Source of the DNA: Rhina ancylostomus
Taxonomy: Eukaryota
Direction: 5' to 3'
Assembly (NCBI GenBank): GCA_030265395.1
Contig: JARFYF010000072.1
Location: forward strand, 540,028 to 604,027
Length of the DNA: 64,000 nucleotides
The position numbers were made by a program, and so were the translations under genes. The notes beneath the pieces were generated by a model, which worked only from the letters and a program-made list of their open reading frames with translations, was not told the DNA's origin and made no database searches. Positions within the stretch are counted from its first letter, which is position 1; each line of letters begins with the position of its first letter. Shown here in pieces: positions 2,646-63,273 of this stretch.

Positions 2646-3172
2646 CAGAGACCTCCAGAATGATGTTCGCCTTTGTTTGAGAGTCAATATTTCCATTCAT
2701 GTACACGTGGTACTTCCCGCTGTCCGAAACATTCACCGATTTCAGCAGGAGGGACCCGTTCGGGAATAATCTTGACCGTGATTTGTACTCATTGGCATAA
2801 TGATTCCCGTAATCATTCCAAATGGCGATAACTTGATTCTCGAAGTGCCAGTACCCACTACTGGCCTTCCGCGATGGCTGCACGGAAAGTATCGCATCGT
2901 CCCCGACGACGACATTTATCCGGCTGTGTTCCGCGCGGATGGTAATCTCCTGCAACCGAACTGTGGAACAGAAGCACGCATGAGGGAAAGGTGAAAGAAG
3001 TGGACAAAACCAACAATAGCAATATTTTGCTCGATTAATCAAGCTCCAATTTACTATTCTATAACCATGGACCTTTTTTTGTTGATGCTCTGATCACTGA
3101 TGCTCAGGGAGAGTGACCTGCACCTGCAGGCATGAAGAGACAAATAAACGCTGTGATCGGTAGCTTCGTCAT
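2646..3172 (-). CDS. CEACAM-like gene A: leader exon 3172-3124 + IgV-like N-domain exon 2960-2646 (downstream exons not seen)
   Basis: Leader MTKLPITAFICLFMPA ends G|GTGCAG. A 315-nt phase 1-1 exon bounded by TTCCACAG| and |GTGAGT encodes RLQEITIRAEHSRINVVVGDDAILSVQP..WHF..IAIW..NEYKSRSRLFPNGSLLLKSVNVSDSGKYHV. This V-set domain lacks the canonical Cys pair, as CEACAM N domains do. Confidence 0.85.
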
Positions 3173-3276
3173 CCCGAAAGAGCACCGCTTGTGTCTGTTA
3201 TGCTTGGAGACTTGAGTCGCTCTATCTTGTCTCCCGGCCAGATCACTGGAGTCAGTTGTGAAAAGCGGTAGAGATG

Positions 3277-10421: not shown

Positions 10422-10950
10422 CAGAGACCTCCAGAATGATGCTCACAGTCGTGTAAGGGCCATTGTTTGGATTCATGTGCACACGGTACTCCCCGCTGTC
10501 CGAAACTTTCACCGATTTCAACAGGAGGGACCCGTTCTGGAATAATGTAAGCCGTGACTGGTACTCATTGGCAAAGGAATGATCCGCACCAATCCAACTG
10601 GCGATAGTTTGTTCCCCGAAGTACCAGTTCCCACTCCTGACCATCTCCGACGGCTGCACGGAAAGTAACGCATCGTCCCCGACGTCGACATTGATCTGTT
10701 TGTGTTCCGTGTGGATGTTAAACGCCAGCAACTGAGCTGTGGAACAGAAAGTCGCATGAGGGAAAAGGTGGAAGAAGCGGACAAAACCAATAATATCAAT
10801 ATTTTGCTCGATTAATTAGTCACCAATATGCTATCCTATAACCATTAACCGTTTATTTAATGCTCTGAACACTAATGCTCCGGGAGAGTGACACTCACCC
10901 GCAGCTGTGAAGAGAAAAAGAGCGAGCGCTGTGAACTGCATCCCTGCCAT
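10422..10950 (-). CDS. CEACAM-like gene B: leader exon 10950-10899 + N-domain exon 10736-10422 (no constant or TM exons found)
   Basis: Leader MAGMQFTALALFLFTAA G|GTGAGT (52 nt). A 315-nt exon with canonical AG/GT encodes QLLAFNIHTEHKQINVDVGDDALLSVQP..WYF..IASW..NEYQSRLTLFQNGSLLLKSVKVSDSGEYRV; no Cys. Confidence 0.88.
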
Positions 10951-11054
10951 TCCGAGAGGGCAGCGCCAGTCTTTGTTACACTCGGAGACTTGAGCAGCTC
11001 TTCCTTGTCTCCGGGCCAGATCACTGGTGTCAGTTGTGAAAAGCGGTAGAGCTG

Positions 11055-14813: not shown

Positions 14814-14865
14814 ATGGAGGGACTGTCTCTCACCGTCCTCGCTCTTTGTCTCTTCATATCTGCGG
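14814..14865 (+). CDS. Gene C leader (signal peptide) exon
   Basis: MEGLSLTVLALCLFISA G|GTGAGG, 52 nt, homologous to leaders B and D. Confidence 0.88.
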
Positions 14866-17800
14866 GTGAGGATCACTCTCTGGGAAAGAAAGTTGTCAGA
14901 GAATGAACACAGCAGCCGATTGTTGGAGAAATGTTTGTTGTAGAGTGCAGGGAACAATCGAATTAATTGAGCCAAGTACAGATTCTGTCAAGTTTGCTCG
15001 CTTCTTTCGTTCTTTCCGTAACATGAGCTTTTTTTCCCCTCACAGGGCAGTCGCAGAATTTTGACATCCACACAGAGCACAGCCGGATCAATGCCACCGT
15101 CGGCGTCGACGCCTTATTTTCTGTGAGGCCGTCAGCAGCTCTTAAGTCTGGGAACTGGGCTTTTGGAGGGAAGATAATCGCCACGTGGATCGGTAGATTG
15201 GCGGATTTCCATAATGCGTACAGGACACGGGCTGAGTTACTCTCGAACGGGTCGCTCCGCCTGAAGTCGGTGCAAGTTTCAGACAGTGGGGTTTACCGTG
15301 TGACCATGATACCACTCTTTGGTTCTCAAAGAACAACGACCATCACTATGGGTGTATCTGGTGAGTGAGACGTTGATCTTTTACAATGAATTATTTTCAG
15401 ACTGTTAGTTTCATTCTCTGCTCGTGAATAATGAATATGAGCTTCACTGCCTAATTCACTTCTAGTTTACAATGCAACATACTATCTTGATTGGAGAACG
15501 CATTATTTTCCGGTATGGAATATAAAACGTACCATTGGAAATTATCTGTCTTCCATTAAGTTTGGAATTCCCCAGCCCCCGACAGGGTTGGGTCTGCTGA
15601 CCAAATACAGGAAGAGGTTGTATGTGGGTGTGGAACCAGATGCCGTGTGACAAGCCGATCCATCTTTTCCGACCATTCGCCTCTGGTTGCGCAAATGTTA
15701 CAGGAATTACAGGGAATTATAATCAGTTATTCTTCGTACAAAGTACCCAACTTTGAATTATTTCCATTTGATTCAGGGCATGACGACGCGGCGAAATCAC
15801 GGTGGAATTTAGTGTCAGGGTAAATGACGTCACTGCAGTGAAAACCGAGTGTTTGTCCACTGTGAGTTTCAGTCTTACTGGGCTGAAAGTTCACAGTTCT
15901 GTTTGACTCGGCGAGGATATGGGTTTTTATTATCTTCACTTTAAGTGAACCTCTGGATTTTGAAGGGGCCCGCACCTAGTCCTTTGTCCTCACTGACATC
16001 TGTGATCAAACATTATTATTGAGCATATTGGAATATTAAAAAGATAGTACTGCTATTTGTTAACAGCAAGAGCTATAGCTAGAGGACATGGAGTTAATGT
16101 ATAAAACGATATTATTGGAGATACTCAGCAGGCAGGCAACAGATGTGAGCAGACAAAAAAAGTTCATCTTCCAGATCAACAGCATTTCAGCAGAACTCTG
16201 TGTGAAAAAACGTTTGTTAGTTCCAAACGATAGGAATCATAGGATATTACATGGACTGTTTGTATCCAATAACGAGGAGAGATGCAGTAATCTAGCGTTG
16301 AATTCCTGTGTCATGGTTCTGAGTTCTGGCTCCATTATGCCTTGTTGTCCAGCACATGGATTCCATGCTGGACTGATTAGATAACAATACACACCTGAGC
16401 CCCATCAGGGGNNNNNNNNNNNNNNNNNNNNNNNNNNNNNNNNNNNNNNNNNNNNNNNNNNNNNNNNNNNNNNNNNNNNNNNNNNNNNNNNNNNNNNNNN
16501 NNNNNNNNNNNCAGTCCAGTATGGAATCCATGTGCTGGACAACAAGGCATTAATGGAGCCAAATTGAGGGCCAGAACTCAGAACCATGTCAGGGAAGGAT
16601 GTTCAGCAGAGGTTGTCAGATTGTTTGGGATCTTAACAAGTCAGTCAGAGCAGCGGAAAGCTCCTTCTGTAAGATGTGGGAAGTCAGGGAACCTTATGGT
16701 CTCCCCTATGGTGCAGTTAGATGTACTCAGGATCACTCGGCAGGCTGATAACATCAAAGATGATGGGAGTGGTGGGAGTAAGGAACGGCATGCCATCTGA
16801 TGTCGTAAATGCGGGATCATTTTTGAGCTTTAGGAATAAATTAGATAGATAGATACATGGACGGGAGAGGTCTGGAGGATTATGGACTAGGTGCAGGAAA
16901 ATGTGAGTAACGGAATAACCTTTCGGCACATACTAGAAGGGCCGGATTGCCTGTTTTCTGTGCTGCAGTGTTCTATGGGAGTTTTAGTGAGGATGTCACG
17001 CCTCATGTGCAGGCCAAAGACAGATGCTTCACCACCAGGAGAAGTAAGGGGAGTAGGCAGACAGTGTAGGGTTCCCCTGTGGTCATTCACCTCACTAACA
17101 TGTATATTGCTGGGGGATGATATTTCAGAGGCCAGAAGCAATAGCCGGGTTAGTGGTACCTTGCCCGTCTCTGAGACAGTGAGGTCAGGCAGACCGATAG
17201 TAATAGGGGACTCGTTAGGAAATGGTGCAGATAGGCATTTCGGTGGCGGCAATCGAGAGTCCAGGATGGTGTGTTGCCTCCCTGGTGCCAGGTTCAAGGA
17301 TGTCTCTCAGCGGTACGGGACATTCTGAGAAGGAGGGTGAGCAGCCACATGTCGCTGTCCATATCGCTATTATAACATACGTAGGAGAAGGAATGAGGTC
17401 ATGCAAAGGGATTTTATGGAGCTTGGTAAGAAATTTAAAAAAGCAGGACTTTCAAGGTTGTAATCTCAGGATTACTGCAGGTGCCATGTTCTAGCGAGGT
17501 AAGAAATATTTACATTGTGGAGTAAGACTAAGGAGCTGGTTCAGGAGGGAGGGCTTTAGATTTATGGATCATTGAGCTCTTTTCCAGGGCAGGTGAGACC
17601 TGTACAAACAGGACGGTTGCACCTGAATTGGGGGAGAACCAATATTCTCGCCGGCAGATTTGCTAGTGCTACTCCGGAGGGTTTTAACTGGTGTGGGATG
17701 GTAACCACAGCAGTAGGACAATTGATGGTAAGGTTGAGGGAAAGAAAGATGGTTTGACAAGTAAGTGAAAGGAAGGAGAGCAAGTTGCAGGCTAATAAAC

Positions 17801-20800
17801 ATGCTGGTACTGGGTGGTCTAAAATGTGTTTATTTCAACGCTCTGAGTATTATGGTCAAGGAAGATGAACGTGGAGCCTGAATCTGTACATGGTATTGCG
17901 ATGTTGTTGCCATAGCAGAAACCTGGTTGGGTGAGGGACAGGACTGGCAGTTTAACATCCATGGGTTTTCAACGTGGTACACAGGGGAGTGAGCGTAATA
18001 GGTGGAACGGTTGAACTACTGATAAGGGAAAATGTCACAGGAGTGCGCACACAAGACAAACTTGAGGGCTCATCCACAAAGGCAATTTGGGTGGAGCTCA
18101 AAAATAAGAAAGGTGCAATTACGCTGATGGGATGAAACTGTAGGATCCCCAATAGCTAACCAGAGGTGCAGGAACAGATATGTAGGCAGATTACGAAAAG
18201 TTGCAGAAGCAACAGGGTTGTCAGAGTGGGGTATATTAACTTCCTCAGTATTGATTTGAACTTCCTTAATACAATTGCGGGAGGGGAAATTGCCACAGAA
18301 TAAGGCAGGAGCTATTAGGTGTTGCTCAACAGCTGCTGCTGTCAGACAAGTCCACGTCTGACATGTGTGAGTTGTTTAAAGATCAGTTGATCAGAGTTCG
18401 TGATCAGCATGTTCTTGTAACACGGATAGCAAGTTTAGGGAACCTTGGTTGACCGCAAAGGTCCTAAACTTAGTGATCAAGAAAGAGGAAGCATGCATAG
18501 GGTTTAGGAAGCTAAATGCAGACTGGGACCTTGTGGAATATAAAGATACAGGAAAGACGTCGTGCCGGCGATTTGGAAGGTCAAAAGGGACCATTGAATT
18601 TCCTTGGCGAGCAAGTGCAAGGATAATCCCAAGGTGTTTTATCCTTAGAGTAAGAAAAAGAGAATAACTAAGGAAAGGGTAAGTTCATTCAAGTATAAAG
18701 GGGGGAAATTTGTGCTTACAGTCAGAGCAAGTGGATGAGGGAATAAATGAGTACTTTGCGTCGGTATTTACCAAGGAGAAGGTTTCGGAGGATAATGAAA
18801 CCAGAGTGGGGCACGTCGATGTGCTGGAAAATTTTGAGATAAAGGAGGAAGTGGTACTGGATGTTCTGCAAAGCAATTCGGTGGATAGGTCCCCAAGGCC
18901 TGATGGCAGATATCCCACAATATTGAAGGAAACAAGTGATGAGATTGCTGGAGCTTCGACAAAGATTACATGATTTAAAAAATATATATATTTACAGCGT
19001 GGTAACAGGCCCTTCCGGCCCAACGAGTCCACACTGCCCATTTTAAACACCAAATTAACCTACCCGTACGTCTTTGGAATGTGGGAGGAAACAGGAGCAC
19101 CCGTAGGATACCCACGCAGACTCAGGAGAACGTACAAACTCCTTAAAGGCAGAGGCGAGAATCGAACCCGGGTCGCTGGCGCTATAATAGTGTCGTGCTA
19201 ACCACTACGCTACTGTGCCGCTTCATTCCCAACTGTGTTTCTGCAGCCAGCTAACTTTTCACCATGAAGACATCCCTACACACCATCCCACACATCCCCA
19301 GTATCACAGAAAGACTATTATCCAGAAATTGCCAGAGATACGTTGTTATTCTGTGGATGGGGCGGGGGGGGGGGGTGGCGCAGTAACTTCTTCCCGATTG
19401 CTGTGGATGCCACAATGTCCAGGAGGTGTATCCTGAGAGGACACTGAGTGCACATTGAAACTCGGACTAGGCCCCACTGTAATGCACTGAGGCTGAAATT
19501 GGCCCGGTATGTTGCAGAACGAGACTGGAATTCATCCCCGTCGGTACACATTTAAACTGAGTCCATAAAGTATGTACCTTACTGACGTCACAGCAAGGAT
19601 GGTGTCCAGAAATTGCCAGAGACACGTCACTTTTCCTTGGACGAGGAGGACTACACCCTTGCATACGGATAGTTGGACAGGGCCGCTGTTCACATGGAAG
19701 GAACTGGGACTTTATATTGCACGCGGGCCCGAAAACTTACGATGCCATCGATTGCATCTGCTCGTTGCAATTTTTAACCGAACATTGGCCTTCTATTTTA
19801 GAGGTCTTCGTGGATTCCGTCGCGCGAACCTTGCAGCAACTACCAACATTAATTGCCGGTCACTGGTGGATCTTCTGGAGCTCTGTGCTCCAGGCAGGTT
19901 TCTGTTTGTGAGCTACCAGTGCAAAAATGGCTTTAAATTAAAATGGCGCCAGTGTGGATGACTTGACGATGTCTGTTGGTCCTCCAAATTACCATGTCCC
20001 TTTTATAGACCAATACAGTTACCGAAGTGCAGGGAACGTGTTGGTGTGAACTCTATCTGGTGTTTGGCTGCTCTACCTCTCCCACTCTGCTTCTCTGCTG
20101 CGTTTCCTTACTGAAATACGTTCAGTGCGTTTGGTTTAAATGGACTGGATCGTCCAAATGTCACCACTAATCCTGGCACCCCTACTTACACTGCTGGAAG
20201 CACCATCACTTTAATATGTTCCATCGAGTCCAGCCCAACCGTGCTTCTTTTGAAACTGGACAGTAGCTCATCCTGGCTGATATATCTGTGAAGGATGCGG
20301 GAAATTACACTTGTCAGGTCTTTCCACTTTTCCACAAGGAGGTGAAATGTATGCAAAGCCTTGTGTTCACAAGGTAATACATATCTCCATTTTTGTCGTC
20401 GTGTAGTACAATAGTGGCGGCGTGCATTTGTTAATTGAACTAACCAACTCAACTTTAACAGAATATCGATTAAAAATTCTCATGTTGCATCTTGAACTTT
20501 AAGAGCATTGATTAGAAAATGTTATGTTTTCATTTTGCTGATAAATCTTTGTTTTAGCACACGACTTCCTTGTTTGCTGCAGTTAAGATTGTCCGACTGA
20601 TGCTTTATGATGAAAATATCAGAGATTTCCAGCCCTCACTTTCATCTTTTTATTTACACTATCACCGTCAGATGAAAATTTCTGCTTATCCCACCAATGA
20701 AGGCACATAAACATTTAATCTAGTTTGTAATTTTGCCTTCAACGGCAAGCCTTACTCTCTTCAGTTTGATCATGTTGCTTTATCCTGGAGAATAGATTTG

Positions 20801-23800
20801 ATTAAGCGCCTGCTGTCGTTTCCAACGAAAGGATGCATGTAGCTCCTCGGTCTCTTTTCTCATGGGAAAATCAGGCTGAAGGTTAGTATTTAAAATTATT
20901 GCACAATAACAGGAACCACAGCGGGTCAGTGGGCGTCTGTGCAGAGAGAAACGGTTAGTGTTCCAGGAAGATAAAATCGTATTTCACACAGCAAAAGGTT
21001 TTGACAGAGTGACGTAGAGTGTATGTTTCCCTTCTGGGATAGAGGAAAACTAGACACGGTCAACAGTGCAATCACCATGAATTCCAATCGGGAGTTCAGA
21101 AAAGTAACCATCACCCAAATGCTGATGAGAAATTGAGAAGAGTTCCGCAGGTTGGTGCATTTGATTGGAGGTTGAAGATACAGATGAGGGACATTGGAGT
21201 CCAGTATGACACAAAGAAACTTGGACGGGGATTGATAAAACTAGAGGAGCGCCGGCGTTCACATCGACGCCAGGTAAAGTTTGTGATGCAGCTGCTACAT
21301 TACTAGAGCAGATATGGATCCTAACCTTGTCCTAATGAGGAATGTGATAGAGCAAATCAGGAGCAAACTTCCGTTGTCCAGAAGGAAGAGATGGTCTGAC
21401 CTGTTTTGACTCTGTGAATAGCATTAACTCCACGCTGTTGGCAACGTTTCGGAAAGCAGTGGGTAGTTACTCTGGGCAGTCTGTCTGTTCTGATGTCAGT
21501 GTTGTTGCTGCAACTTGTTTTTCAGTGAATTCAGTCAATCGTTCTGCAACTTAAACCAGTGTTTTCTTGACCTCATCTCCCTCCAGATCCGAATTTAGTT
21601 ATCTTTCCTATATAACTTACGTTTGTAGAAACTTATTCCAGCCTGCTGCCTGAATTGTTTTTCCATTATAAATCTTTACTTCCAGAAGTATCAGCAGCAC
21701 TCACAGGACATGGGAACATGTTACGTGTTTTGTTTTTGTCAAAACATACAACAATGACTTGGTGATGAGGAATGGGGTTTAGTAGAGGATTGCGTTTGTG
21801 ATTTGAAGCCTGTGACCAGTGGTCTGTCACAGGAATAGATGCTGGGACTCTTTCTGTTTGTTGCATGCATGGACCATTTCCATTTGACTTTTATTTACAG
21901 AGATGGCGCTTGAAGTCACGGTATCGACCAACAATTCAACTCCAATAGAAAACGGAGATACCATAGAACTGACTTGTCACGCTCGAGGCACTGTGCAGAC
22001 ACGGGTATGGTTGAAGAATAACCAGACGATCCCGGAAAATGGTAGAATATTTACATCTCCAGACAACGCCACACTGACTATAACCAGTCTTATCAGAAAT
22101 GACGCAGGAACATACAAGTGCATCGTTAGCCAGGATTTCAACACTGCCTCTGGAGAGATCTACGTGCAAGTTCACTGTAAGTACGCAGGCATTAGTTTGC
22201 AAGCAACAACATTAGTTTGCACTGAAATTAAACATATAATATTTTCTCCTTTTATAGATGGACCAGAGAAGATAAGAATTCTGCCGCAGGCTCCAATTGT
22301 AGCCATTCCTGGGTCGAATCTGACATTAACTTGCTTTGCAGTGTCCTTCCCAAGAGGTGAATATGCATGGTACAACGGGAGCAATCAGCTACAAACTGGG
22401 CAGCAGTATACTATCGAGTCAGTAAGCTCAGTTGACAGTGGGAATTATACATGTCAGGTTATTAACAGCGTAACCAATAGGAGCAGTAATCTCACCGTCC
22501 TTGTTACCACACAAGTTGAGTGAATGGTTCCTCATGGCTACAGTCAAATTGGCTGCATAATGATCGNNNNNNNNNNNNNNNNNNNNNNNNNNNNNNNNNN
22601 NNNNNNNNNNNNNNNNNNNNNNNNNNNNNNNNNNNNNNNNNNNNNNNNNNNNNNNNNNNNNNNNNNNNNNNNNNNNNNNNNNNNNNNNNNNNNNNNNNNN
22701 NNNNNTGATTAGGAAGAATAACATGGCCGTGAAGCTTCTTTGTTTTGTCCAGAAAATTGAATCTTGTGGCGGGAATCGACAACACAGGGAATGCAAAGTG
22801 AATTGCCTATTTACCAAAGAGTTAAATAATCACCCCGCAGGGAAACAGGCCCGTCATGTCAGCCGGTCCATGCCGCCCAAGATGCCCCATCCAGGATTAT
22901 TAAATTTGCCAGAGGTTGGTCCACATCCTTCTAAACCCTAGATAACCATATATCTGTCCAACTGTCTTTTAAATGCTGTTATTTTACCATCCTGAACCAC
23001 TACCTCTGGCAGACCATTCCATATCCAACAGTTTAAAAAAGTTGCCGCTCAGGTTCCTATTAAATATTCCTTCTCTCATCTAAACCTGTGCCCTCCAGTT
23101 CTTGATTCTGCAATCCTGGGAAAAACATTGAGTGTATTTACCCCGTCTATATTCCTCATGATTTTATGCAACCCTGTAGGATCACCTCTCAGTCTCCAAC
23201 GCTCCAAGGATAAAGGTCCTCGCCTGTCCATCTTCTCCCAATAACTCAGTCCCTCAAGTCCTGGAAGCACCCTTGTCATTCTTTTCTACGCTCTTTCCAT
23301 TTTAATAACCTCTGCCTTGTTATCCTATTGTTCTTAATTTAGGTCCCGAATTCCTTGATATTCTCTTTAATACGACTCCCCAGGAAATTCCATAGCCCCT
23401 CCTGCTTTTTCCAATTTCTATCCTGAGCTCTTTCCTGGCTTCTTCATAATCCTGAAGTGCCCTGTTCGACTTTCGCTTCATAAACCTTGGATACGCTTCA
23501 GTTTACTTCTTGACTAAATTCACCACCTCTCTCGTAATCCAAGGTTCCCTTACCTTGCCATCCTTGTTCTCTCTTCTTACTTGAACATACCTGCCCTGTA
23601 CTGTGTGCAGTTTGTCTTTAAAATCCCTCCACTTTTCAGATGTGGACTTGCCCAAAACATCTGCTCCCAATTAACTCTCCCAATTTTCTGCATACACTCT
23701 CGTAATTTGCCCTGCTCCTATTTAATAACCTCGTGAAAGCTGCATGCTATCAATTAAGCTATCGTAAAACTTATGGAGTTATGATCACTATTACCTTAAT

Positions 23801-26800
23801 GTTCTCCCACTGAAAGGTCTGTACGATGGCCAAGCTCCTTTCCCGATTTCAGGTCCAGTATGGCCCGTCCTCTAGCCGGACAACCGGATACTGATGTAAG
23901 AAACCCTCTTGGCTGTATGTAACAAATGTTACCCGGTCTAAACCTCTCGCGTTAAGGACGTCAGATTCGATAGTGGTAGCTCGTCACTCAGGACAGCAAC
24001 CCTGTTTTTCTTCAGTGTCCCGGGGTCTATTCGGGGCATGTATGATAAATGCATCAGGGTGATTGCACTTTTCTTATTTTTGAGTTTTCCCCATATCGAC
24101 TCAGTGAATTAGCCCTCCATTATGTCCCCTCTTGAATACAACTGTGATGCTATCTCTGATTAATAGTGCAATTATCACCCCATCTTCTACCTCCCAGTCT
24201 ATCATTTCTGAAACATCCAAACGCTGGAACATGAAGCATCTAGTACAGTCCCTCTCTCAACCATGTCTCTGTAATAGCCACAACATCATTTTCCCATGTA
24301 CTGATTTATGCTCTGTTCATCTGCCTTACTCTTAATAATTGGTGCATTGAAATAAACACACTTTAACCCGTCAGTTCCATCTTGTCTACTACCTTTTCTC
24401 TGCGCATTCTTCCTAACAGACTTACACGTCATAATATTTGCCTTCCTCTAAACGCAGCATTCTCTCAATGTGTGATTAGAATTCTGAAGTATTTTATATT
24501 TTCTGGTTATTTGTGTATTCAACTTTCTCTGAAAATCGACTATGATCGTGTCTTTTTCTGGTTTGAATCGAAATTTTTATTTCTTTGGCTGATATACNNN
24601 NNNNNNNNNNNNNNNNNNNNNNNNNNNNNNNNNNNNNNNNNNNNNNNNNNNNNNNNNNNNNNNNNNNNNNNNNNNNNNNNNNNNNNNNNNNNNNNNNCAG
24701 ACGAGCAATATCTGTCTGTTCAGAGAACGTTGAGCACAGTTTTTATACCTGACTATTGTCACTGCGATGTGAACAGTTTAGCGTGTTGGTCTGTCATCAT
24801 TTCACCAGCCGTTCTTCACTCTCGATCTGATACATCAACCACTCTACAACAACACTTTATTTTAAAATAATGTGTTCGTCTTCTTAATCAAATTGCTACT
24901 GTAACGCATTTGTTTCCGGCAAATATTGTTTACGCACTTTTGCAGATGTCAGTAATACCTTAAGCCCTGGCGCCATCACAGGAATAGTAGTTCGTCTCCT
25001 TTTGGGTATGTTCTGCATCATCAGTGTTTGGTTGATTGCAAGAAACACATGCAGGTAAAATAGATTTCTGAGAATGTCACTTTTGCATCTGATATTTGTG
25101 AGATCAATTGATCTGTAAATTACAAGCACACAAGCCAGTGCCACCCACATAACAAGCTTATGAGAAAGAAAAAAATGAAATATATGGCTTTAAAAGGAAG
25201 TTAAATGCAATTTTTTGAAGAAAGAGGTGAATGGGGGAAGTTATCATTGTAGGAACGATGGCATTATACTGGGGTCAGTATTATGTGCATTGAAATATTC
25301 AGTAATTATTCATAACCAAGACGTGGGTCCAAAGTATAATTTCTACATTTTCCGTTGACACNNNNNNNNNNNNNNNNNNNNNNNNNNNNNNNNNNNNNNN
25401 NNNNNNNNNNNNNNNNNNNNNNNNNNNNNNNNNNNNNNNNNNNNNNNNNNNNNNNNNNNNNNNNNNNNNNNNNNNNNNNNNNNNNNNNNNNNNNNNNNNN
25501 NNNNNNNNNNNNNNNNNNNNNNNNNNNNNNNNNNNNNNNNNNNNNNNNNNNNNNNNNNNNNNNNNNNNNNNNNNNNNNNNNNNNNNNNNNNNNNNNNNNN
25601 NNNNNNNNNNNNNNNNNNNNNNNNNNNNNNNNNTAAGGCATGGACATGTCTGGGCTTTATCCATAGAGGCAGGGAGTATTAGAGGAAGGGAGCTACGCAA
25701 CACATTAAGAACTTGCATACGAGACAGCAATTTATTTTCGTCATTTCTGGTCACCACTTTATAAGAAGCAGGCTAGGACTTCAGAGTGGTATGTACTCCA
25801 GAACAGATGTACGAAAGTGGGCCCTGGGATCAGAGATGGATTGTAGGGACTGGGACTGTTTAATTTTGGGAAAGGGAAGGTTGAGTGGAGATTTGACTGA
25901 AGCACATAAACTGATGTAGAGGGTGGACCACGTGGAAAGCGGGAACTTGGTTTCCTTGGTGAAAGAGTGAAGGATTAAAGATCACAGGCACAAAACAAAG
26001 GGGGCGGGTTGTAAAAGAGACGAAGAAAGGCTTATTTTGCACAGAGCATCGTTGGAACATCGACCGCCCTACTTGCGGATGCTTTAAAGGCAGGCCCCAA
26101 TGTCGCCATTCAGAGGGAGCTGGATAGATATACGATGGATAAATATTTGGAGACGGAGATATGTCAGTTGGTGGAGCTGGAGCTAGACCAAAATATTTTG
26201 CACCGCTTCTCGGCCATAACCTCTGATGTTGATACGGAGCAGTAATGAAATATGGCATCCGATAACTGAAACAGTTTCAAAGAATAACTGGAAACACAAG
26301 ACACTTTTAGATGATGGAATCTGGAGCAACACACAAAATGCTGGAGGAACTCAGCCGATCAGGAAGCATCTATGGAGGGAAATGGACAGTAGAGCTTTCT
26401 GGTGGAGACGTCCGATGAAGGGTCTCGATAAAGAGTCTGGACTCGAAACGTCCGCTGTCCAATTCCCTCCGTAGGTGCTGCCTGAACCGCTTTCTGTGTT
26501 CCTGATGGAATAACTGGACATCCATGAAATTAGACTTCAGTAGCAGTTCTCATTCGGTGTATCAGTCCAAGGAAATAACTTGAAGCAGATTTCACCTTTT
26601 GACCTCTTTGTTTATTCAGGGTGAAAGGTCCATACCGGGCGAAATATGACACGAACATCACTTCAGGAGGAACGAGTGAGTGAACTCCTTTACAACTGTT
26701 CCGTTACTGTGTCCATGGAAATATAAACAGTCCCTGTTAATATAGCTCGATTTGATGACCTGTGTATCACAGCGCTACCGAAGCTGAATATTTCCAACTT

Positions 26801-37793: not shown

Positions 37794-37832
37794 TATATAA
37801 ATAGAGTTTTCATCGGGTGGTTGTGCAGTAGT
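37794..37832 (-). CDS. Gene D cytoplasmic exon 3
   Basis: TATCCACAG|TTAQPPDENSIYI|GTAAGG; with the terminal exon gives YIEL-x7-YSDL. Confidence 0.75.
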
Positions 37833-43209: not shown

Positions 43210-43485
43210 AGTGAACATTGAGGTAAAACGTGTTGCTTGTCGTTCCACCAGTCAAGTTGCAGGCGCGACAGGTGAACGGTCCATCTGTCCGCAACACTCC
43301 AGAAATAGTGAGTGTGCTGTTATCGGCACCCAGTTCAAACCTGCCACCAGGAATTATCACGCTATTGTTTTCAAGCCACAGATAAGAGACCCCTGTGCCT
43401 TTTGCGATGCACGTTAATTTCACGGTATCATTGTGCTCTATTAGGCTGGAGGCATTGGATGTAATATTGGGTTTGAAAACATGTT
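43210..43485 (-). CDS. Gene D IgC2 A-type exon
   Basis: EHVFKPNITSNASSLIEHNDTVKLTCIAKG..WLENN..DNSTLTISGVLRTDGPFTC..LNVH|GTAAGT; 276 nt, intact. Confidence 0.88.
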
Positions 43486-44790: not shown

Positions 44791-45054
44791 CCGTGAATAC
44801 TAAAGTTTCGTATTGTTACAGTCGATCTTTCGGTTACATTTTTAATTTCTCACAAGTGTAACTGCTTGTGCTATTCAGGGGTAAGTCAACAAGGATTGCG
44901 AGCTGCCCACTTTGCTGAAGAGATGAACCATTGAAATACCACTGAACCAGAGAAACGGGGCTCGGAACTGCTGAACAGAAAAAAATTGCGTTTGACCCTG
45001 TACTGTTTGCAGCAAGTTCTGGGCTGACTGATATGCTTAGGTTTTTTGGTCCAT
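44791..45054 (-). pseudogene. Decayed IgC2 B-type pseudo-exon in gene D
   Basis: DGPKNLSISVSP..GSNAIFFCSAVPSP..WYFNGSSLQQ..SSYTCE, then stop/frameshift; acceptor reads GG. Confidence 0.8.
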
Positions 45055-48787: not shown

Positions 48788-49102
48788 CAAGGACCCGCAG
48801 AGTGATGGTCGCTGAAACTGAAGGGCCGCTCGTTGCAACCATGTTCACACAGTACTCCCCGCTGTCCGACGTGTTCACCGACCTCAGCAAGAGCGATCGG
48901 TTAGAGGTGAATAACTCAGCCCGTGAACTGTACTCATTGCTATAAGACACGGTTTCATAGATCCACCGGGTGACTATTTTCCCATTGAAAGTCCAGCTTC
49001 CACCCGTGACCTCGGTCGACGGCCGCACTGAAAATAACGCATTTCGTCCGTCCGTCAGATTGATACGGCTGTGTTCTACGTGGATGGTAAACTGAGACTC
49101 AC
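48788..49102 (-). CDS. Gene D IgV-like N-domain exon
   Basis: ESQFTIHVEHSRINLTDGRNALFSVRP..WTFNGKIVTRW..EYSSRAELFTSNRSLLLRSVNTSDSGEYCV..LRVL|GTGAGT; 315 nt. Confidence 0.9.
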
Positions 49103-49272: not shown

Positions 49273-49324
49273 CCGCAGATATGAAGAGACAAAGAGCGAC
49301 CGCGGTGAGCGGAAGCCCCGCCAT
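49273..49324 (-). CDS. Gene D leader exon
   Basis: MAGLPLTAVALCLFISA G|GTGAGG; 52 nt. Confidence 0.88.
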
Positions 49325-50647: not shown

Positions 50648-50910
50648 CAATGACCCGCAGAGTAGAGGTCGCTGATTCTTGAGAGCCTCTCATTGGAACC
50701 ATGGTCACATGGTACTCCCCGCTTTCCGAGGTGTTCACCGACTTGAGCAGAAGTGACCCGTCGCTGCTGAAAAACTCAGCTCATCATATGTACGCATGAC
50801 CAATGGACAAGGCAGTACCGAACCACTGGACGAAAGCTCAGTTCCTACTGTCGACCTCGGCCGACGCCGCACTGAAAAGAACGCATTTCCCCCGACGGTC
50901 ATACTGATAC
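50648..50910 (-). pseudogene. 5'-truncated CEACAM N-domain pseudo-exon
   Basis: ISMTVGGNAFFSV, frameshift, ..N*AFVQW..AYI**AEFFSSDGSLLLKSVNTSESGEYHVTM..LRVI|GTGACT; the downstream intron is homologous to that of gene D. Confidence 0.85.
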
Positions 50911-52194: not shown

Positions 52195-52797
52195 TCATTC
52201 GACAGTGAGATTACTACTCCTATTGTTAACGCAGTTAATGAACCGACATGTGTAATTCCCGCTGTTAACCGAGCGCCTTGACATAAGGGTGAGTTCCTGC
52301 CCTGTCTGAAGCGGAATTCTCCCGTTGTACCAGGCATATTCACCACAGGCGACTGACAGAGCAAAGCAAATCAATGTCAAATTTCCAGGATTTCCAACAA
52401 CGGGAGACTGCGGTAGAATTCTGACCTTCACTGGTGTATCTATAAGACGAGAAAACATGTCGATTTTATAGTCAATAATATCGGTTACAAACTAACGTTG
52501 TTGTTTGCCTGCATACTGACAGTAAACATGCACGTAGGTCTCTCCAGCGCCACTGTTGAAATGATTGCTGATGATGAACTTGCATGTCCTTGCGTTTGTT
52601 CTGTTCACATTTATTATAGTTAGTTCGGTATTGTCTGGAGATGTCAATATTCTACTATTTTCCTGGATGAGTTGGCTATTTTTCAACGATGTTCCTGTCT
52701 GAATAGTGTCCAAAAGCGCAACAACTCAGTACTATCGATTCAATGTTTTCCACTGGAGTGAAATCGTTGGTCAACAGGGCGAGATCAGACACGGTCT
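52195..52797 (-). pseudogene. Orphan CEACAM A (52797-52521) + B (52439-52195) pseudo-exon pair
   Basis: The A exon is 277 nt with a frameshift and lost Trp/Cys (..TPVENIESIVLSC/..QENSRILTSPDNTELTI..); 81-nt intron; the B exon TPVKVRILPQ..NLTLICFA..EYAWYNG..NSGNYTC ends in a stop. Most similar to the gene C A/B exons. Confidence 0.85.
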
Positions 52798-54152
52798 CTG
52801 TGAATAAAATTGAAATGTAAATCGGGTAACACGGTTGTTTTAACCACAATCTCTTCGCAACTGGTGTTTATTTTCTCTGAGTCAGCAGACTCCCGTGAAG
52901 GAGGTGGGGGAGGTGTGGGGTCAACGGAAGCGTGCAGGTGCTGTGCAGCCTAGCTTCCAAGGATCAGATGGTATATTAAGCGGCAGTGGGCTGCTGAATC
53001 ATTCCCTGCAATCTGCTGCTAGCTGCTCGTCCAAGTGGAACAATGCACATTCCAGGTGGAAAAAGACCAAAGTGAGATCATAAGAAACAGAAACTGCAGC
53101 TATCCATGCTGCCTGCGTCCCCTGACTACTCCAGCATTCAACAAGATTGAGGCTAATCTTCCAGCAGCGCCAATGACATGTTTTATCTCCCTACCCTTGT
53201 GTTAACGAATTATCCAAACATCTATCAAGCTTTCTGTCTCGCATATTCCCAAAGATTCATTTCTATAATCTCTTGGTCAAGAATTAAACAGATCGATCTG
53301 ACTCTGGTTGAAGAGCTTGCTCCTTCTCTCGGACTGACCCCTCATATTGACAGCCTGACCCCTGGATGTAGTCCTGTCAGGGGAAGTGGCATCTCTGCTC
53401 TCACCCAACCAAGGCCCCAAAGGGATGCCACGTGCTTCGAATAGGGTATCACCTCAGTTGCAAAACATTTCCTGCAGCTAACCAAAAGCTAATTTCCAAG
53501 TTGATCAGGAAAACAAAGATTTCCGGGTTGCGTTTTCTTGACTCCGCGACTTAATCCACAAAGAACATGGAACGAACTATTTAACTTAGCGTACGATCAT
53601 TGTAAATGTGAACAGAAGTCGGCCAATCGTCCCATAGAGCCTGCTGCACTATTTGAGGGGAACACGGCCAAACTAATTGTAACCTGAACCCTTGCTCCCC
53701 GTCCACCTCCCACCTTAATATTAAGATAATATTAAGATGCTAGTGTTAACTGAGACTGTGAATTGGCCATTCCTGCTCTCATCAACAATTGTTCCTCTCT
53801 TCCGGTAAATGTTGTCCCAGTATTCTCTGGGATTCAAGTGGAGAAAATGACCTCATTGCAACCTGGAAGACGTGTATGGATCTTCGCAAGGTAGAAACAG
53901 TGATGCAACTTCCGCTGACTGATCTGCCAATTACCAAGGTTCATGGACAGAATGAAAGGGGTCTGTTTTCCAGTTCGAACGAAGGAGCCAGTTCTTTGCT
54001 TAGAAAATAATCAATCTTTTGGATTCAAGACGCCAGAGCAGTGGATATTGAAACTCAGAGCATGTTCAATAGCGATTGATTGATACATGCTTGGATCTAT
54101 GGAAAACTACCCAAAGGAAATACAAAAGGCAATTGGCACAAAGAAGCTCCTG

Positions 54153-57742: not shown

Positions 57743-57856
57743 TTAATAAGTATGAAAATATTTTCTTTTAAATAACATTTTGTATCGCTTGTCAAACGTT
57801 TTGAGCTCATACATCATCAGGTCCCTTGAAACTGATCGATCTTCCAACGGCAGCTC
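57743..57856 (-). CDS. Gene F terminal cytoplasmic exon
   Basis: ELPLEDRSVSRDLMMYELKTFDKRYKMLFKRKYFHTY*; the YSDL of C and D reads SRDL. Confidence 0.78.
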   Translation of the reverse strand, partial: ELPLEDRSVSRDLMMYELKTFDKRYKMLFKRKYFHTY

Positions 57857-60800
57857 CTGTTGAACATGAAAAAAATGTGATTCGCGGAAGTGCATCGGCA
57901 GAAGCAGACAGTGGCAAAATGTATCAAAAGATCATATAAAGGTATTCCAAGATGAGCCCGGTAGGGTCTTGGACAGCAAATGAATATGAGGACATGGGGA
58001 TCGGGCAGGACAGTGGACGTGGGAGATATGATCACCTGCGACACTGTCATGTGTTGGAGGGGGATCCAATAGTAGAGTTTTTCGCATTTGGATTTGATTC
58101 TAAACCGGTAAACTGAAAACANNNNNNNNNNACATTTACTTCAAAATGAATCAATAAAATAATTTCCTTACTATATAAATAGAGCTTCCATGGGGTCGGT
58201 GTGCGGTACGCTGTGGATAGAGAAATAAGTCAATGGCTGAATCAACGACCACACTGAAGATGTCCTTATCTCTCCTCCCAAATGAAACCTCATGGAATCA
58301 ATGTTTGGATTCATTGCTGCTTTGGGCAATTTTGCACCGAACGCCTATTCTGAACACAGCCTGGTTTTACTTCAATAATGAGAGCGAAATGTGGTCTCAT
58401 ATGGTAACTCTCATTGATGGAGAGTCCGGATGTACGATCATGACGTAGTGAAGTCGATTAGCTGGCGTTTAGTGTTCAGCACTATTCCTCATGCGTCGCA
58501 GAGTCATAGAGCCACAGAATAATACTGTATGGAAACGGGGCCATTCGGTCCATCTCATCCATGCAGGTTATGTTGCCAACAAGCTGGCCCCGTCTGCCCA
58601 CATTTTGCCCACGTTTTACCCATAACCTTATAAACCCATCCTATCCATGTACTATCCAAATGTGTTTTAAATAATGCTATGAGGCACATGGAAATGAATA
58701 ATTCAGTTTGAAGTATTATCTATTTTACCCAGTGTTCCCTGTGTGTCTTCTTATAGACTCATCTATCACGTTGACATGAAACTGATTCTTCATTTCAGGG
58801 TCAGTCAGGGGCAGACAACAAATCTGGCCGTTGTCACCGAGACCCATATCCAATGGGTGAAGAGCTGTTTTTAAAAAACTCTCAGAAGGACCACAGTCTG
58901 TCGACCCCATTCTATAACTACTACCTGAGATATTACACTTATGGTTCCACAGCAGCATTGCCCCTTATATATACATATAAGAAATCATAGAATCATAGAA
59001 CAGTTCAGCAAAAAACAGGCCGTTCAACCCACAATATGTGCCGACCTTTAAAACCTCTCCTAAGACCATCTAACCCCTTCCCCCATCTGTCACTCTATTT
59101 CAAATTCCTCCATATACTTATCTAAAAATCTCTTGAACTTGACCAATGCACCCGCCTCCACCAGAACCACAGGCAGCGCATTCCAATGCCCCAACCACTC
59201 TCTGGGTAAAAAAAATAATAAATGATAGTGATTATAATAAAATCAGACTGCAACTTCACCAACATTTTGATTCCTTCGGATGTTTTCAAATGCGAATGAT
59301 GATCTTCCAACTCCCGTAATCAAGGAAACTGCAGAAATATAAAATATTGAGTCAAGTGAACAAACAATAGCAGAATAAGTTTCCCAACGAAGAGGACAGA
59401 TGTTAGACGCATTGGATCTGCTATCAAATTCATTCGATTAATCACCTCCTTTCCCAATCGTCCTACAGATTATAATAAATTATGTTCTGATCCTATTCTG
59501 CTCACTCTCGGCGACAGAATTTGGGGATCCTCATTGTCCTTTAGAAGTTGGTCCCGATGCAGTTCAGTGAACGGCCGGTCAAGCATTGCAAGTTTTATTT
59601 ATGTAGGACATAGACATCGCTGTGCAAAAGCACAATTTCCCACTCAATTACCATTCAGAGTATGAGGACCCAAAAGGTTGACGAGCGATTAAAACGCAGC
59701 AAAGTGCGACATTCCGGATAGTAGCAACCCAATACCGAAGCATTCGTCCTCAGTCACCTCCCCACACTGTCCCTTCTTTTCACTCAGATATAACCCTCTC
59801 TGTGCCAGTATAAACCTATCCCACAAACCATTTGATTCCTAATTACATTATCGCACCTTTGACTTTGAGAATAATACGAGTGTCTCTATGAAGTCCACGG
59901 ATCTGCACAGATACATCCTTTGTGATTCCTGTTATATGAGGTCATGGAGTGTTACAGCAGGAAGCAGGTTCTTCTGCCTGACGCGGCCATGCCGACAGAG
60001 ATGCCCCTCTTCGTTGACCCAATTTTCCTGCATTTGGCTCATATCACTCCCTATAATGTCAATCTATTCACTTTTCCAAATGCTTAATAAATACAGTGAC
60101 TTTACCTCCCTCCACCACCTCCTCTGCTATCCAGATCCATTCATCCACCACCCTTTGTGTGAAGAACGTGTCCCTCTGATTTCCTTCAAGTATTTCCGCA
60201 CTCACCCGTGTCCTCTTGCTTTCGGCTCCTCTACTCTTAGAAAAAGACTGACTCTCTACCTCGTCCATTCCCCTCATAATTATGTAAACCTCCAGAAGTT
60301 CAGCCTCAGCCTTATACGCTCCAATGAGAATGATCCCAGCCAATCCAATTTCTCTTTGGAACTAAAGTCCTCCTAACATCATGGCGAATCTCTTCCGCAC
60401 ACTAACACATACGTTCTATGCTGTGGTGAACAGAACTCGATACAATATTCGAAGTGTAGCCCAATCAGTACCTTGTGCAGGTTGCCGTGCAGAATGATTT
60501 TCACTTACTGTTTGCTTCTGATTTCAAGGTCATGTAAGAAGTCCCAAGAAATTTGAACCTGTGTAAATAGAAGCTGGTCAAAATGTGAACTCTGGAAAAA
60601 GAACATTGTTTCAAAATACTAATTTTGTGTGCAAATTTCTCCAGACCTTGTATTGCTGTATGTTGACAACAGAGTATAAGACGGTGAAGCAGGACAGACG
60701 AAAGTGGTCTGGACACCGAGGGTTCAATGTCACCAGCACAAGACGCTACATTTCCATTGTAATACTCGGTCTACTTATCGTTAAATAACTATATTTATGA

Positions 60801-63273
60801 TGAAAGGATATCGACGTGAAACATTTCTCTCTCCACAGATGGTCCCTGATACCATGCACAGGCAAGCCAAGATAAGGACAGACAATCTCTTTTACAGATA
60901 AGGATGTGGGAATCAGCTGAGATTTTGAGATGATCAGGTTTTTCGCCGTCATTGGACAGATTGGTTTAGTCACATGACGTTAGCTCTCACCAGCTCGAAA
61001 CCTGAAGCATATGTTTGAGGGAGGGATACACAGATATATATTTTGTCTTCCGCAGTGGGGTTCTCCAGATTAAGAGGGCACAGTTCAGAATAATGGGTCG
61101 CCTTAATCCGAAGGATATGACGAGAAATTTCTTCTCTCAGAGGGCGGTGAATCTTTGGATTCTCTTCCTGTGTGGAGTTGGAAGCATTGAGCATATTCCT
61201 GGCCAAGCGAGACATATCCTTGGCCTATTACAGAGAGAAGGGCTTTTGGGAATGGCAGCTAAGTTGCACTGCGGCCAAGATCAACTGAGCCACCATCTCA
61301 TTGGATAGAATAGGCTCAAGGGGCTGATTGGCACTCTCCAGCTTCTGCTTGTCACATTGGGATGGTGCGTTTAAAATGGGCGATGCCCAAATTAATAATA
61401 CAGGCCTCTCCATACGACCAGTGCAGTGCAGTGGAGCGGAAGTCAGTACTGACGTGATCCACTGACCTGTGCTGAACGCCACCCCACTGCCCCCCGGTCG
61501 TGCATGGGTGGTGTTTTCACATTCACCGGTGACATATGGGTTCCTCCCGGATGCTTCGGTTTCCTCCTGCATCACAAAGACGTGCAGAGTCGGTGGGTAA
61601 TTCGGCCGCTTCAAACCTCACTGAGCGGAGCTGGTTGGCAGAAGAATCCGCTGGGAGGTAATGGGCAAGTGAGGGAGAATTGGTTGCAAAGGAAAATAAA
61701 TGGGGAAAGAGACGGGTGAAGGGCAGAAAGTCCCTTCTATGTCGTGGGGATATGAAAAACACGTTGATTGCTGTACTATCGTGGTCATCATAAATGGCCG
61801 ACTGGCAAAACGACTGAGTAATGTTAAAGCGAATTTGGAAAGTTAGCAACGTGTGAAATGCCCTCGAGAAACACGGACTCCATCGGTTGACACGACAGAA
61901 GGAACGCAAATTGTTCTGCAGCAAATCATTGGTCACTTTTGGACATCAGGTCTGGAGAGTATTATTCAGATAATTTTTCAATGAAAAGTATTTACCTTCT
62001 TGCATTCTTCTTGATTAACCAGGCAGCTAATCCACTCACAAGCACCACTCCAGCAAGAACACCAATCACATTCCCAGTTTTCACTCCAGTTGACAAACCT
62101 ACAGGAGAAGGGATTGTTTTGTTTTTCTGAAAATGTAGTCGNNNNNNNNNNNNNNNNNNNNNNNNNNNNNNNNNNNNNNNNNNNNNNNNNNNNNNNNNNN
62201 NNNNNNNNNNNNNNNNNNNNNNNNNNNNNNNNNNNNNNNNNGTTTTTCTGAAAATGTAGTCGTGGAAATAATGACAAGGAATCAATAGAGCGTAATAAAG
62301 GAAAGAAAAACGAGTGGATGTCTTTTCTATTTTTCCTAGTTTTGCTACCCTCAACTCAAAGTTTTTGCTGTTTGAAATGACGGAAAATAAGTGGCAGCTA
62401 CTCTATCTGGAAAACTATGTGCTGTAGACTTACGTTAACTCAACGGCTTCCTGGATAACAAGTGAATCCCATGGCACCCTCTATCATGGCTGATACGCTC
62501 CCCAACATTTAATGTCCATGAAAACACGGCATCTTATTTTCCTTCGATGAGCAAATTAGACAGCAGAGGAGATCGCGAAAGTTGGAAAATAAAATTGTTG
62601 AGAACTTTAAGAAGGCAATCGAAACGGAATATGGACCCAAACATTTACTTACTCCGTGTGGTTACCTCGACAATGAGGTTGCTGCGTTTCATGGTTACGC
62701 TGTTATAAACCTCACAGGTATAATTTCCACTGTCAATCGAGCTTACTGCCTCGATGGTGTACTGCTGCCCCGTCTGTAGATGATTTGTCTCATTGTACCA
62801 TTTATATTCACCACTGGGGACTGACTGGGCAGAACAAGTTAAGGTTAGAGGTGAACCAATATCTGCCACAACTGGACCCTGCGGAAGAATAGTGATGTTG
62901 TATGGTCCATCTGCAAACAGAAATCGAGAAGATATGTCGTTTCTGTAATCACTAATATTAAATGCAAAATAATGTATTGAGCTACCTGCGCACTTACAGT
63001 TAACTTGCACGTCGATTTCTGCACTGCCACTATTGTAATCATTGCTTGCGATACAGTTATATGTTCCTGTGTCAGTTCTCTTAACAGGGGTTATGGTCAG
63101 ATAAGCTTTATCTGGAGATGTAAATATTCTGTCATTTTCCTGGATGGGTAGGTCATTCTTCAACCATGTTCGTCTCAGAACAGTGCCCTGCGCGTTACAA
63201 GTGAGTACAACTGTATGCTCATTTTCCACAGGTCTGACTTTGCTGAGTGCTATAATGACATTGGACACGGGTT
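57743..63273 (-). CDS. CEACAM-like gene F, 3' part (5' end outside window): A 63273-62998, B 62910-62653, TM 62098-61996, cyt1 60558-60509, cyt2 59328-59264, cyt3 58210-58172, cyt4 57856-57743
   Basis: All seven exons are open and phase-compatible, with canonical AG/GT, and each is homologous to a gene C exon. Confidence 0.82.
58172..58210 (-). CDS. Gene F cytoplasmic exon 3
   Basis: TATCCACAG|RTAHRPHGSSIYI|GTAAGG. Confidence 0.78.
59264..59328 (-). CDS. Gene F cytoplasmic exon 2
   Basis: TTTCTGCAG|..SLITGVGRSSFAFENIRRNQN|GTTGGT; 65 nt. Confidence 0.7.
59935..60480 (-). mobile_element. CR1 LINE 3' fragment
   Basis: LLEVYIIMRGMDEV..RDTFFTQRVVDEWIWIAEEVVEGG..FIKHL. Confidence 0.8.
60509..60558 (-). 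CDS. Gene F cytoplasmic exon 1
   Basis: TTTACACAG|G FKFLGTSYMTLKSEAN A|GTAAGT; phase 2-1. Confidence 0.72.
61415..61740 (+). mobile_element. Decayed V-SINE-like element
   Basis: tgggttcctcccggatgcttcggtttcctcctgcatcacaaagacgt matches the core of the SINEs at 18991 and 39898 in the opposite orientation. Confidence 0.6.
61996..62098 (-). CDS. Gene F transmembrane exon
   Basis: CTCCTGTAG|..LSTGVKTGNVIGVLAGVVLVSGLAAWLIKKNAR(R)|GTAAAT. Confidence 0.85.
62653..62910 (-). CDS. Gene F IgC2 B-type exon
   Basis: YGPYNITILPQGP..GSPLTLTCSAQSVPSGEYKWYN..DSGNYTCEVYNSVT..|GTAAGT; 258 nt. Confidence 0.9.
62998..63273 (-). CDS. Gene F IgC2 A-type exon
   Basis: EPVSNVII..PVENEHTVVLTCNAQG..WLKND..SPDKAYLTITPVKRTDTGTYNCIASN..|GTAAGT; 276 nt. 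Confidence 0.9.

Follow-up and report, generated by a model that had tools for sequence, protein, structure and literature searches.

A ray CEACAM gene cluster that probably supplies ITAM-class and decoy members of a paired-receptor family

The DNA analysed here (a 64-kb stretch from Rhina ancylostomus, referred to hereafter as the window) is, judged by its exons, part of a rhinopristiform-like ray CEACAM gene cluster. It holds five paralogous N exons, four of them intact, together with A- and B-type IgC exons and two transmembrane (TM) exons, as the initial annotation had described; the end points given there, 2646 and 63273, coincide exactly with exon borders. The N exons of genes A, B, C and D are each 315 nt long, phase 1/1 and open, and that of E is broken. 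Leader, N and IgC exons are all phase 1, the IgC exons alternate between A-type and B-type (best matches CEA and CEACAM1), and N is an IgV domain most like the CEACAM N domain, none of the four intact exons encoding the canonical disulfide pair. The description of these domains as Cys-less holds for A, B and C but not for D, which has one non-canonical Cys (three of the four intact). The intact N domains are 46–58% identical to each other, and every gene but B carries a lesion or lacks a part. No flanking gene was found within the window (the CEACAM-locus markers being LIPE, ATP1A3, CNFN, TOMM40 and BCL3), nor any NACHT remnant by tblastn with proteins P0056 and P0057.

Membership of these genes in the CEACAM family, as had been proposed for this cartilaginous fish, is close to certain from the sequence matches. 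CEACAMs are the top four PDB matches of gene B's N exon and the top six of an N-domain profile (CEACAM 1e-8, CD48 6e-4, CD2 2e-3), and a full-length homologue from the sawfish Pristis, P0021, matches CEA at 5e-89, with its best non-CEACAM match at 1e-18. The best 65 of the profile's 72 matches are chondrichthyan, 51 of these 65 carrying CEACAM- or PSG-like names and three HEPACAM- or VSTM5-like ones. Foldseek with the IgV model places TIGIT, CD48 and PD-L1 in the lead and CEACAM7 at rank 35, all at E 2e-7 to 9e-7, a spread of less than fivefold across all IgV matches that does not separate the IgV families. A quick N-domain tree with many open forks (105 columns, 95 of 100 rows; five exact duplicates left out, including the N of P0021, which duplicates P0011's first N) clusters by lineage and not by tail class, and the suggested lineage-specific expansion is supported; several of the relatives compared are chimeric automatic models.

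Genes A and B lie on the minus strand. The N exon of A (2646..2960; IgV, no Cys, open; V-set 3e-6) is preceded by a leader exon with a weak donor, GTGCAG (3121..3172), and B, its tandem duplicate (308–4322 against 8111–12085, 82%), comprises an open N exon (10422..10736) and a leader exon (10899..10950). The N of A clusters with B and the first N of Pristis P0015 (98% SH-aLRT). No IgC, TM or tail exons were found for either gene in positions 1–14000 (one gap, 4922–5021), and we regard A and B as probably soluble, PSG-like forms; A, B and D had been grouped as anchorless, which stands to this extent, but only 2.6 kb of DNA lies downstream of A inside the window and D is a doubtful member. The A and B N exons differ at 19/30/16 first, second and third codon positions, with dN/dS of about 1.62 and no indel, against 27 indels in 3.7 kb of flank. 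Differences fall on 28 of 48 CC′C″/FG residues versus 11 of 49 others (p = 0.0004, the limits of the CFG face having been set after viewing the alignment). Taken alone, pN versus pS is not significant (Fisher p = 0.25), and the excess of N-exon over flank divergence (p = 0.002) is weakened because the adjoining 600 nt are almost equally divergent (18% at non-CpG sites, N exon 20%). A 23-residue hydrophobic read-through of B's N exon that could mimic a GPI signal was not adopted, the counterpart in A being shifted by 4 nt and its end not kept. A screen for short N-only proteins akin to B covered a single candidate, gave no match and is uninformative.

Gene C, on the plus strand, matches the Pristis pectinata RefSeq protein P0016, which by sequence is its sawfish orthologue. 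Its leader exon (14814..14865, 82%) and N exon (15046..15360, 88%; IgV model with pLDDT 90) are followed by a dead B-type IgC exon (20142..20376, borders approximate; acceptor lost, frameshift, stop), an A-type exon (21901..22176, 84%) and a B-type exon (22258..22523, 93%), where the exon proper runs to 22515 and read-through would reach a stop at 22521–22523; the Ig exons thus span 84–93%. The TM exon (24946..25054) has an intramembrane Arg codon at 24993–24995, in the outer part of the helix, common only to C and P0016. Four cytoplasmic exons follow: the first (26620..26675); the second (27083..27147) with YEN, a YxN motif; the third (27866..27907, phase 0) ending in YM, the first ITAM half; and the fourth (28191..28280), which completes the ITAM YMGL-x7-YSDL and carries the stop. 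These five TM/tail exons join in frame at AG/GT borders and, from TM to third cytoplasmic exon, match P0016 exon by exon at 72–93%. Those of F (below) have the same borders and in-frame joins and match P0011 at 69–82%; because of these exon-by-exon RefSeq matches, neither five-exon set can be put down to chance.

The claim that C encodes an ITAM receptor is borne out by the tail and limited by the splice sites. The B exon has TT instead of GT at its donor (22516–22517), so that an N-A-B-TM-ITAM form has no canonical splicing route, and C would yield either a secreted N-A-B form or an ITAM receptor that skips B; the ITAM (YxxL-x6-8-YxxL) is reached in frame through the TM exon if N or A is spliced to it, but not if B is. 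Run X1, which is genomic (one 1515-nt contig covers exon and intron), has only TT at this donor (bin depth about 10); it may itself have gone into the assembly and is not independent evidence. In the P0016 model B is joined to TM and the last exon is another one, whereas in C the donor reads TT and the ITAM exon is complete.

The minus-strand D block begins with a leader exon (49273..49324) and the N exon with its single Cys (48788..49102), followed by a dead B-type IgC exon (44791..45054; acceptor GG, frameshift), an A1 exon with one extra Cys (43210..43485, 74% to P0011) and a B1 exon (41407..41667, 84% to P0011) with a TAG stop at 41465–41467, just past the second Cys. The N of D shares a clade (98% SH-aLRT) with the N domains of the Pristis ITSM receptor, P0011 and P0051. 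Beyond B1, also on the minus strand, lie an orphan third cytoplasmic exon (37794..37832, SIYI) and an orphan fourth exon with an intact second ITAM half (37018..37110; closest to Pristis P0051, 61%). Three sets of tyrosine-motif exons had been counted: C and F have all five TM/tail exons, but this third set has only the last two. Its ITAM is intact, its phase does not match the Ig exons of D, and no TM or first or second cytoplasmic exon was found for it. E, on the same strand, consists of a broken N exon without leader (50648..50910) and a broken A2/B2 IgC pair (52200..52799, borders approximate); an E-like fragment precedes a D-type leader in P0011 (77% over 31 aa).

Gene F, again on the minus strand, runs from an A2 exon (62998..63273, 84% to P0011) and a B2 exon (62653..62910, 89%) to a TM exon (61996..62098, 82%) and four cytoplasmic exons; the window has neither a leader nor an N exon belonging to F. 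The first cytoplasmic exon (60509..60558, 75%; second in-frame acceptor at 60591) carries a new motif, TSYMTL; the second (59264..59328) has FEN in place of YEN; the third (58172..58210) encodes SIYI and joins EL; and the fourth (57743..57856) has Ser in place of the second ITAM Tyr. The second half of P0011 resembles both D's 5′ exons (72–84%) and F's exons (69–89%); D and F match two halves of one sawfish model. Whether D plus F are one gene stands at about even odds on this evidence, and the gene count is insecure for that reason. Conserved DNA that follows the tails of D and F is better explained as 3′ exons, phase-0 acceptors starting MTSL at 57473 and 36692 resembling the last exon of P0016; LIPE remnants, considered for the same DNA, were rejected (12 ORFs with no HSL family match, and no PDB match).

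The tail of F is, by sequence, an ITAM-type tail that has lost two tyrosines and gained a YMxL motif, all three changes being common to P0011. Its disabled ITAM had been recognised correctly, but the ITIM/ITSM-like reading of its remaining motifs fares less well: the SxYxxL pattern also fits both halves of ordinary ITAM tails, so SIYIEL cannot by itself identify an ITIM. The tail exons find their counterparts in the ITAM class (P0051, 48%), and the tail of the ITSM receptor P0047 is unmatched beyond the TM region; the sequence does not support F as a CEACAM1-like dual ITSM/ITIM receptor. An inhibitory F is conceivable but less likely than not. Outside the window F-type tails were seen in P0011 only (172 candidates; 210 proteins), in a search that is weak because it was word-based and sampled at 50% clusters.

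A paired CEACAM system likely exists in rays. Among 66 chondrichthyan proteins 27 have ITAM tails and eight, from six species, ITSM tails. Compared as proteins, the N domain of the dual-ITSM receptor is 90% identical to that of a same-species ITAM receptor in Pristis (P0047 and P0021; IgC 55–65%) and in Mobula hypostoma (P0043 and P0037; IgC 48%), against 53–77% between species. In Hemitrygon the ITSM receptor and nearest ITAM receptor share 77% in N and 48% in IgC. The ITSM orthologues of two Mobula species are 96% identical in the tail and 77% in N (IgC comparisons between ITSM orthologues were left out because they mixed non-equivalent domains), the M. birostris N being closer to this M. 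hypostoma orthologue than to the best ITAM paralog found in its own species (75%). The two proteins retrieved from Heterodontus form no pair (56%). Xenopus Ceacam pairs unite ITIM/ITSM and ITAM members with N domains 80–93% identical (PMC5112662); unlike these, the window genes form no such pair, and the ray inhibitory class has two ITSM-type motifs.

Our favoured account, which we hold to be probable, is that the window contains the ITAM-class and decoy side, in expanded form, of a paired family whose inhibitory partner, by its tail class, is absent from the window. CEACAMs are surface proteins that bacteria seize in mammals. A CEACAM1-like dual-ITSM receptor of epithelia or leukocytes would be encoded outside the window, with microbial adhesins binding its N domain; ITAM paralogs, their N exons kept similar by gene conversion, would drive uptake and killing of adhesin-bearing microbes, signalling by way of Src-family kinases, Syk and a YxN site for adaptors. 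C would be an older, non-converted ITAM receptor, its products being leader-N-A-TM-ITAM (B skipped) or a secreted leader-N-A-B form (read-through); an adaptor with an acidic TM may be recruited by the Arg in its TM helix. A and B would serve as N-only soluble decoys under diversifying selection, and F would be a former ITAM receptor that lost tandem Syk binding and now signals via two isolated Tyr motifs separated by 42 residues, by phosphatase recruitment or endocytosis. With its activating, retooled and probably secreted members, the family looks drawn into a host–pathogen arms race; for the window's own genes a pathogen-driven role is somewhat favoured by the sequence.

The strongest competitor, though unlikely, is birth-and-death debris: a cluster edge of mostly dying duplicates, in which the F tail, the C Arg and the C donor reflect relaxed selection. 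The dead exons at 20142, 44791, 50648 and 52200 and the D B1 stop fit this, as do C's TT donor, A's weak leader donor, the extra Cys in D and dN/dS near 1 for A/D and B/D (0.91), but the C and F IgC domains remain 84–93% identical to sawfish, frames stay open across five tiny exons, the F Tyr pattern and the C Arg are each common to two species, and the differences between A and B concentrate on a single face, free of indels. These rays are viviparous, and A, B and secreted C might instead be PSG-like maternal–embryo signals rather than pathogen decoys. Secreted single-N CEACAMs of horse are PSG candidates (PMC2832619); with just two N-only genes in the window we consider this role very unlikely here.

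That C (ITAM) and F (ITIM-like) themselves form the opposing pair, as the initial annotation proposed, is hardly probable. Their opposite orientation is a named condition for conversion (PMC5112662), their tails look opposing, and F's N exon may sit beyond 64000; however, the low identity among the window's N domains and the absence of the dual-ITSM tail class count against it, D's N, if it serves F, is only 50% identical to that of C, the N domains of the sawfish orthologues (P0016 and the second N of P0011) fall in separate clades, and C's N is 88% identical to its orthologue, unlike converted pairs. Assignment to a different IgSF family whose V domain lacks the disulfide (CD2/SLAM, HEPACAM or VSTM5) could draw on a weak Pfam Receptor_2B4 match for D (0.0015), the Foldseek order and the three HEPACAM- or VSTM5-like names, but is scarcely credible beside the PDB and profile matches, the alternating A/B IgC exons with a four-exon split-ITAM tail, and the narrow range of the fold scores.

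CEACAM pairs are a textbook receptor–decoy arms race with bacteria, described in mammals, frogs and reptiles; mammalian CEACAM1/CEACAM3 ligands are known. Overall, the system is a familiar one in a lineage new to it, and its odd variants deserve testing. Xenopus Ceacams likewise have a phase-0 intron splitting the first YxxL, a YxN motif, N-only members and CC′C″FG diversification (PMC5112662), C's tail follows the marsupial ITAM plan (four exons, YxN in exon 2, YxxL-x7-YxxL), and secreted bat CEACAMs arise by donor loss and read-through (PMC2832619). The available text of PMC2832619 describes for mammals and marsupials neither a tail that arose from an ITAM by loss and gain of tyrosines nor a TM Arg.

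LILRA, Fc-alpha-RI and NKp46 are activating receptors with a TM Arg and rely on FcR-gamma or CD3-zeta. C is like them in having a basic residue in the TM helix (principle, PMC4810170) but, unlike them, also carries its own ITAM; a catfish receptor binds its adaptor without need for TM charge (PMC4810170), and the accessible portion of a 2014 survey reports no FcR-gamma in sharks (PMC4016189).

For cartilaginous fish, the literature found consists of little skate ESTs, which establish that CEACAMs exist there and, in the parts available, describe a single homologue and not a cluster, tail classes or pairing (PMC3628338, PMC4079198); no description of a paired arrangement was found. The ray data suggest that such an arrangement was already present at the base of the jawed vertebrates, with concrete genes named for testing; N-exon-conversion pairs in cartilaginous fish would make it an anti-pathogen device across all jawed vertebrates. 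A fuller combination, of such pairs with F as a second inhibitory receptor, adaptor coupling through the C Arg and a manta N-NLR fusion, is rather speculative; if true, sawfish-like rays rebuilt CEACAM signalling twice (F and C), in ways undescribed for CEACAMs. F would offer a natural experiment of an ITAM tail turning non-activating.

Taken alone, the window amounts to gene-model correction rather than a new system. Pristis models carry automatic 'CEACAM-like' names, some names being wrong or models chimeric, and the anticipated risk of mis-annotation is real: F's orthologue in sawfish sits within a chimeric model and goes by the name 'neural cell adhesion molecule 2-like'.

The window holds a real fragment of a CEACAM cluster, a known kind of system with new members. 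CEACAM structures are the first matches both of the N (IgV) exon of gene B and of a profile of four N exons; in the database, sharks and rays account for the best 65 of the profile's 72 matches, 51 of these 65 carrying CEACAM/PSG-like automatic names, and a full-length ray member matches CEA at 5e-89 (best non-CEACAM match, 1e-18). The tail of gene C (four exons, with YEN in exon 2 and the first ITAM YxxL cut by a phase-0 intron) follows the plan of marsupial and Xenopus CEACAMs in the excerpts of PMC2832619 and PMC5112662. The Foldseek ranking, in which CEACAM does not come first, counts against the assignment. The initial annotation was correct about family and general character. The Ig exons of C are 84-93% identical to those of its Pristis pectinata orthologue (P0016), from which we infer that the window belongs to the sawfish group or close to it. 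A weak match to the N profile (4e-8) comes from P0069 of the hagfish Myxine glutinosa, a protein that bears the name CEACAM5-like and whose V domains and tail have a different appearance; PMC3628338 (in excerpt) reports no CEACAM in lamprey.

Skate ESTs are known evidence of CEACAMs in cartilaginous fish (PMC3628338 and PMC4079198, in part; their supplements may hold skate detail), and relatives of the window genes are already present in RefSeq. A 2026 preprint (PMC13278318, in excerpt) describes receptor-decoy conversion in amphibians, primates and other mammals, adding reptiles. Searches of the main texts of open-access papers turned up no work on CEACAM clusters in sharks or rays, or on their pairing, transmembrane Arg or NLR fusion, and the excerpt of PMC13262535 has nothing further on these subjects.

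Searching by tblastn with the window's own Ig exons as queries located five N exons, IgC exons and two TM exons, with borders set by hand. Four N exons are open, each of 315 nt in phase 1/1 with its own 52-nt leader exon. C and F alike have a TM and four cytoplasmic exons in frame across AG/GT borders, and identical junctions recur in sawfish RefSeq models, which argues that these small exons are not chance. The initial annotation had stated the gene models too surely. The eukaryotic scaffold is gapped (16 N runs). The 100-N gap at 62142-62241 has the same 18-21 nt on either side; it is therefore probably a false gap between overlapping contigs. High-copy interspersed repeats lie at 16309-16591, 18966-19220, 39878-40126, 55546-55661 and elsewhere (depth >100,000 for those within 14700-28520), and several gaps and joins fall inside such repeats.

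Regular expressions divided the tails of 66 chondrichthyan proteins into 27 ITAM, 8 ITSM-type, 9 YEN only and 22 with none. Six species have the ITSM class, apparently as one gene in each; it is defined by two TxYxx(V/I/L) motifs, of which P0060 and P0071 show a single copy. Same-species ITSM and ITAM receptors of Pristis and Mobula hypostoma share 90% identity in N versus 48-65% in IgC, whereas ITSM N domains across ray species share 53-77%; between two Mobula species the ITSM receptors are 96% identical in the tail and 77% in N. Hemitrygon shows a weaker signal (77%), as does M. birostris, where the 75% falls below the 77% shared with its orthologue; the two Heterodontus proteins sampled show none. 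This likeness, seen here at the protein level only, is the paired-receptor signature described in the excerpt of PMC5112662. C and F had been cast as the opposing pair; the signature lies instead in the receptors of other rays, and the 64-kb window has no ITSM-class gene. Identity between its N domains and that of the Pristis ITSM receptor is 45-68% (nearest, D). Between 2 and 6 N domains stand in tandem in several shark and ray models (P0001, P0003, P0005-P0009, P0013), some of which may result from the merging of genes.

Relative to the ITAM class, the F tail has FEN for YEN, Ser for the distal ITAM Tyr and a new TSYMTL in exon 1. The only other F-type tail among the proteins searched is that of Pristis P0011 (FEN and ISYMNL), a model that stops just ahead of the distal Tyr. 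Since SxYxxL also fits ordinary ITAM halves, F could be an inhibitor, an endocytosis driver or inert.

Gene D comprises L-N-A1-B1 with a stop inside B1, followed, across a 3-N gap in repeat-like DNA, by two orphan, out-of-phase ITAM exons. P0011 unites a broken N fragment, a D-like L-N-A1-B1 and an F-like A2-B2-TM-tail in one model, so that a single gene, misplaced in scaffolding or rearranged, may account for D and F; we give equal weight to their being two paralogs that arose in one old duplication and then underwent deletion, which predicts the 70-78% likeness of D's intron and tail region to those of F. The stretch 3' of D's B1 (38511-39241) is a 70-71% copy of 63387-64000, the intron that precedes the A2 exon of F; one segment is inverted about a TC microsatellite.

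The donor of C's B exon reads TT (22516-22517), with a stop two codons further. As all Ig exons are phase 1, skipping keeps the frame, and C can, as predicted from its exons, yield L-N-A-TM-ITAM or L-N-TM-ITAM, or by read-through a secreted L-N-A-B. The N-A-TM-ITAM form is common among ray homologues, and in a bat secreted CEACAMs arise by donor loss and read-through (PMC2832619, in part). The TM helix of C has Arg where paralogs have Gly; in 78 proteins, 54 TM segments were detected, and the only one with a charged residue is that of P0016. This Arg suggests adaptor coupling, on which PMC4016189 and PMC4810170 (in excerpt) offer cautions. Retention of the intron after N in C (15361, +) or D (48787, -) would meet a stop two codons on, giving a secreted N-only form; in B (10421-10350, -) the frame would stay open into a 23-residue hydrophobic end. 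A conserved phase-0 acceptor starting MTSL lies 3' of cytoplasmic exon 4 at 57473 and 36692 (both -). P0016, P0017 and P0024 end in sequence resembling it, so skipping of exon 4 may produce ITAM-less isoforms.

A and B are tandem duplicates (N exons 79% identical, flanks 84-85%), and no other CEACAM exons for them were found in 1-14000. Their N exons have a dN/dS of 1.62, the pN/pS test by itself not being significant; of the residues in the regions C-C'' and F-G, 28 of 48 differ, versus 11 of 49 elsewhere, a skew towards these two regions (strands as in a predicted structure model). Pristis P0015 has a second, very divergent N-type domain (about residues 290-395, long branch) after an A/B-like N; immediately beyond the window's left end there may be a distinct subgroup of CEACAMs.

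Alongside the observed architecture, tail classes, homogenised N domains of other rays and skewed A/B substitutions, mammalian CEACAM biology suggests a mechanism in which the ITSM receptor's N domain would be bound by microbes, traps and decoys would be supplied by ITAM paralogs together with soluble N domains, and F would have departed from the activating class.

Outside the window, two manta ray protein models (P0056, Mobula birostris; P0057, M. hypostoma) fuse a leaderless CEACAM-type N to NACHT, winged-helix, HD2 and LRR domains, a fusion on which the literature searched held nothing relevant. Either the fusion resembles the integrated decoy domains of NLRs or both models share an annotation artefact; their N domains make up a clade of their own.
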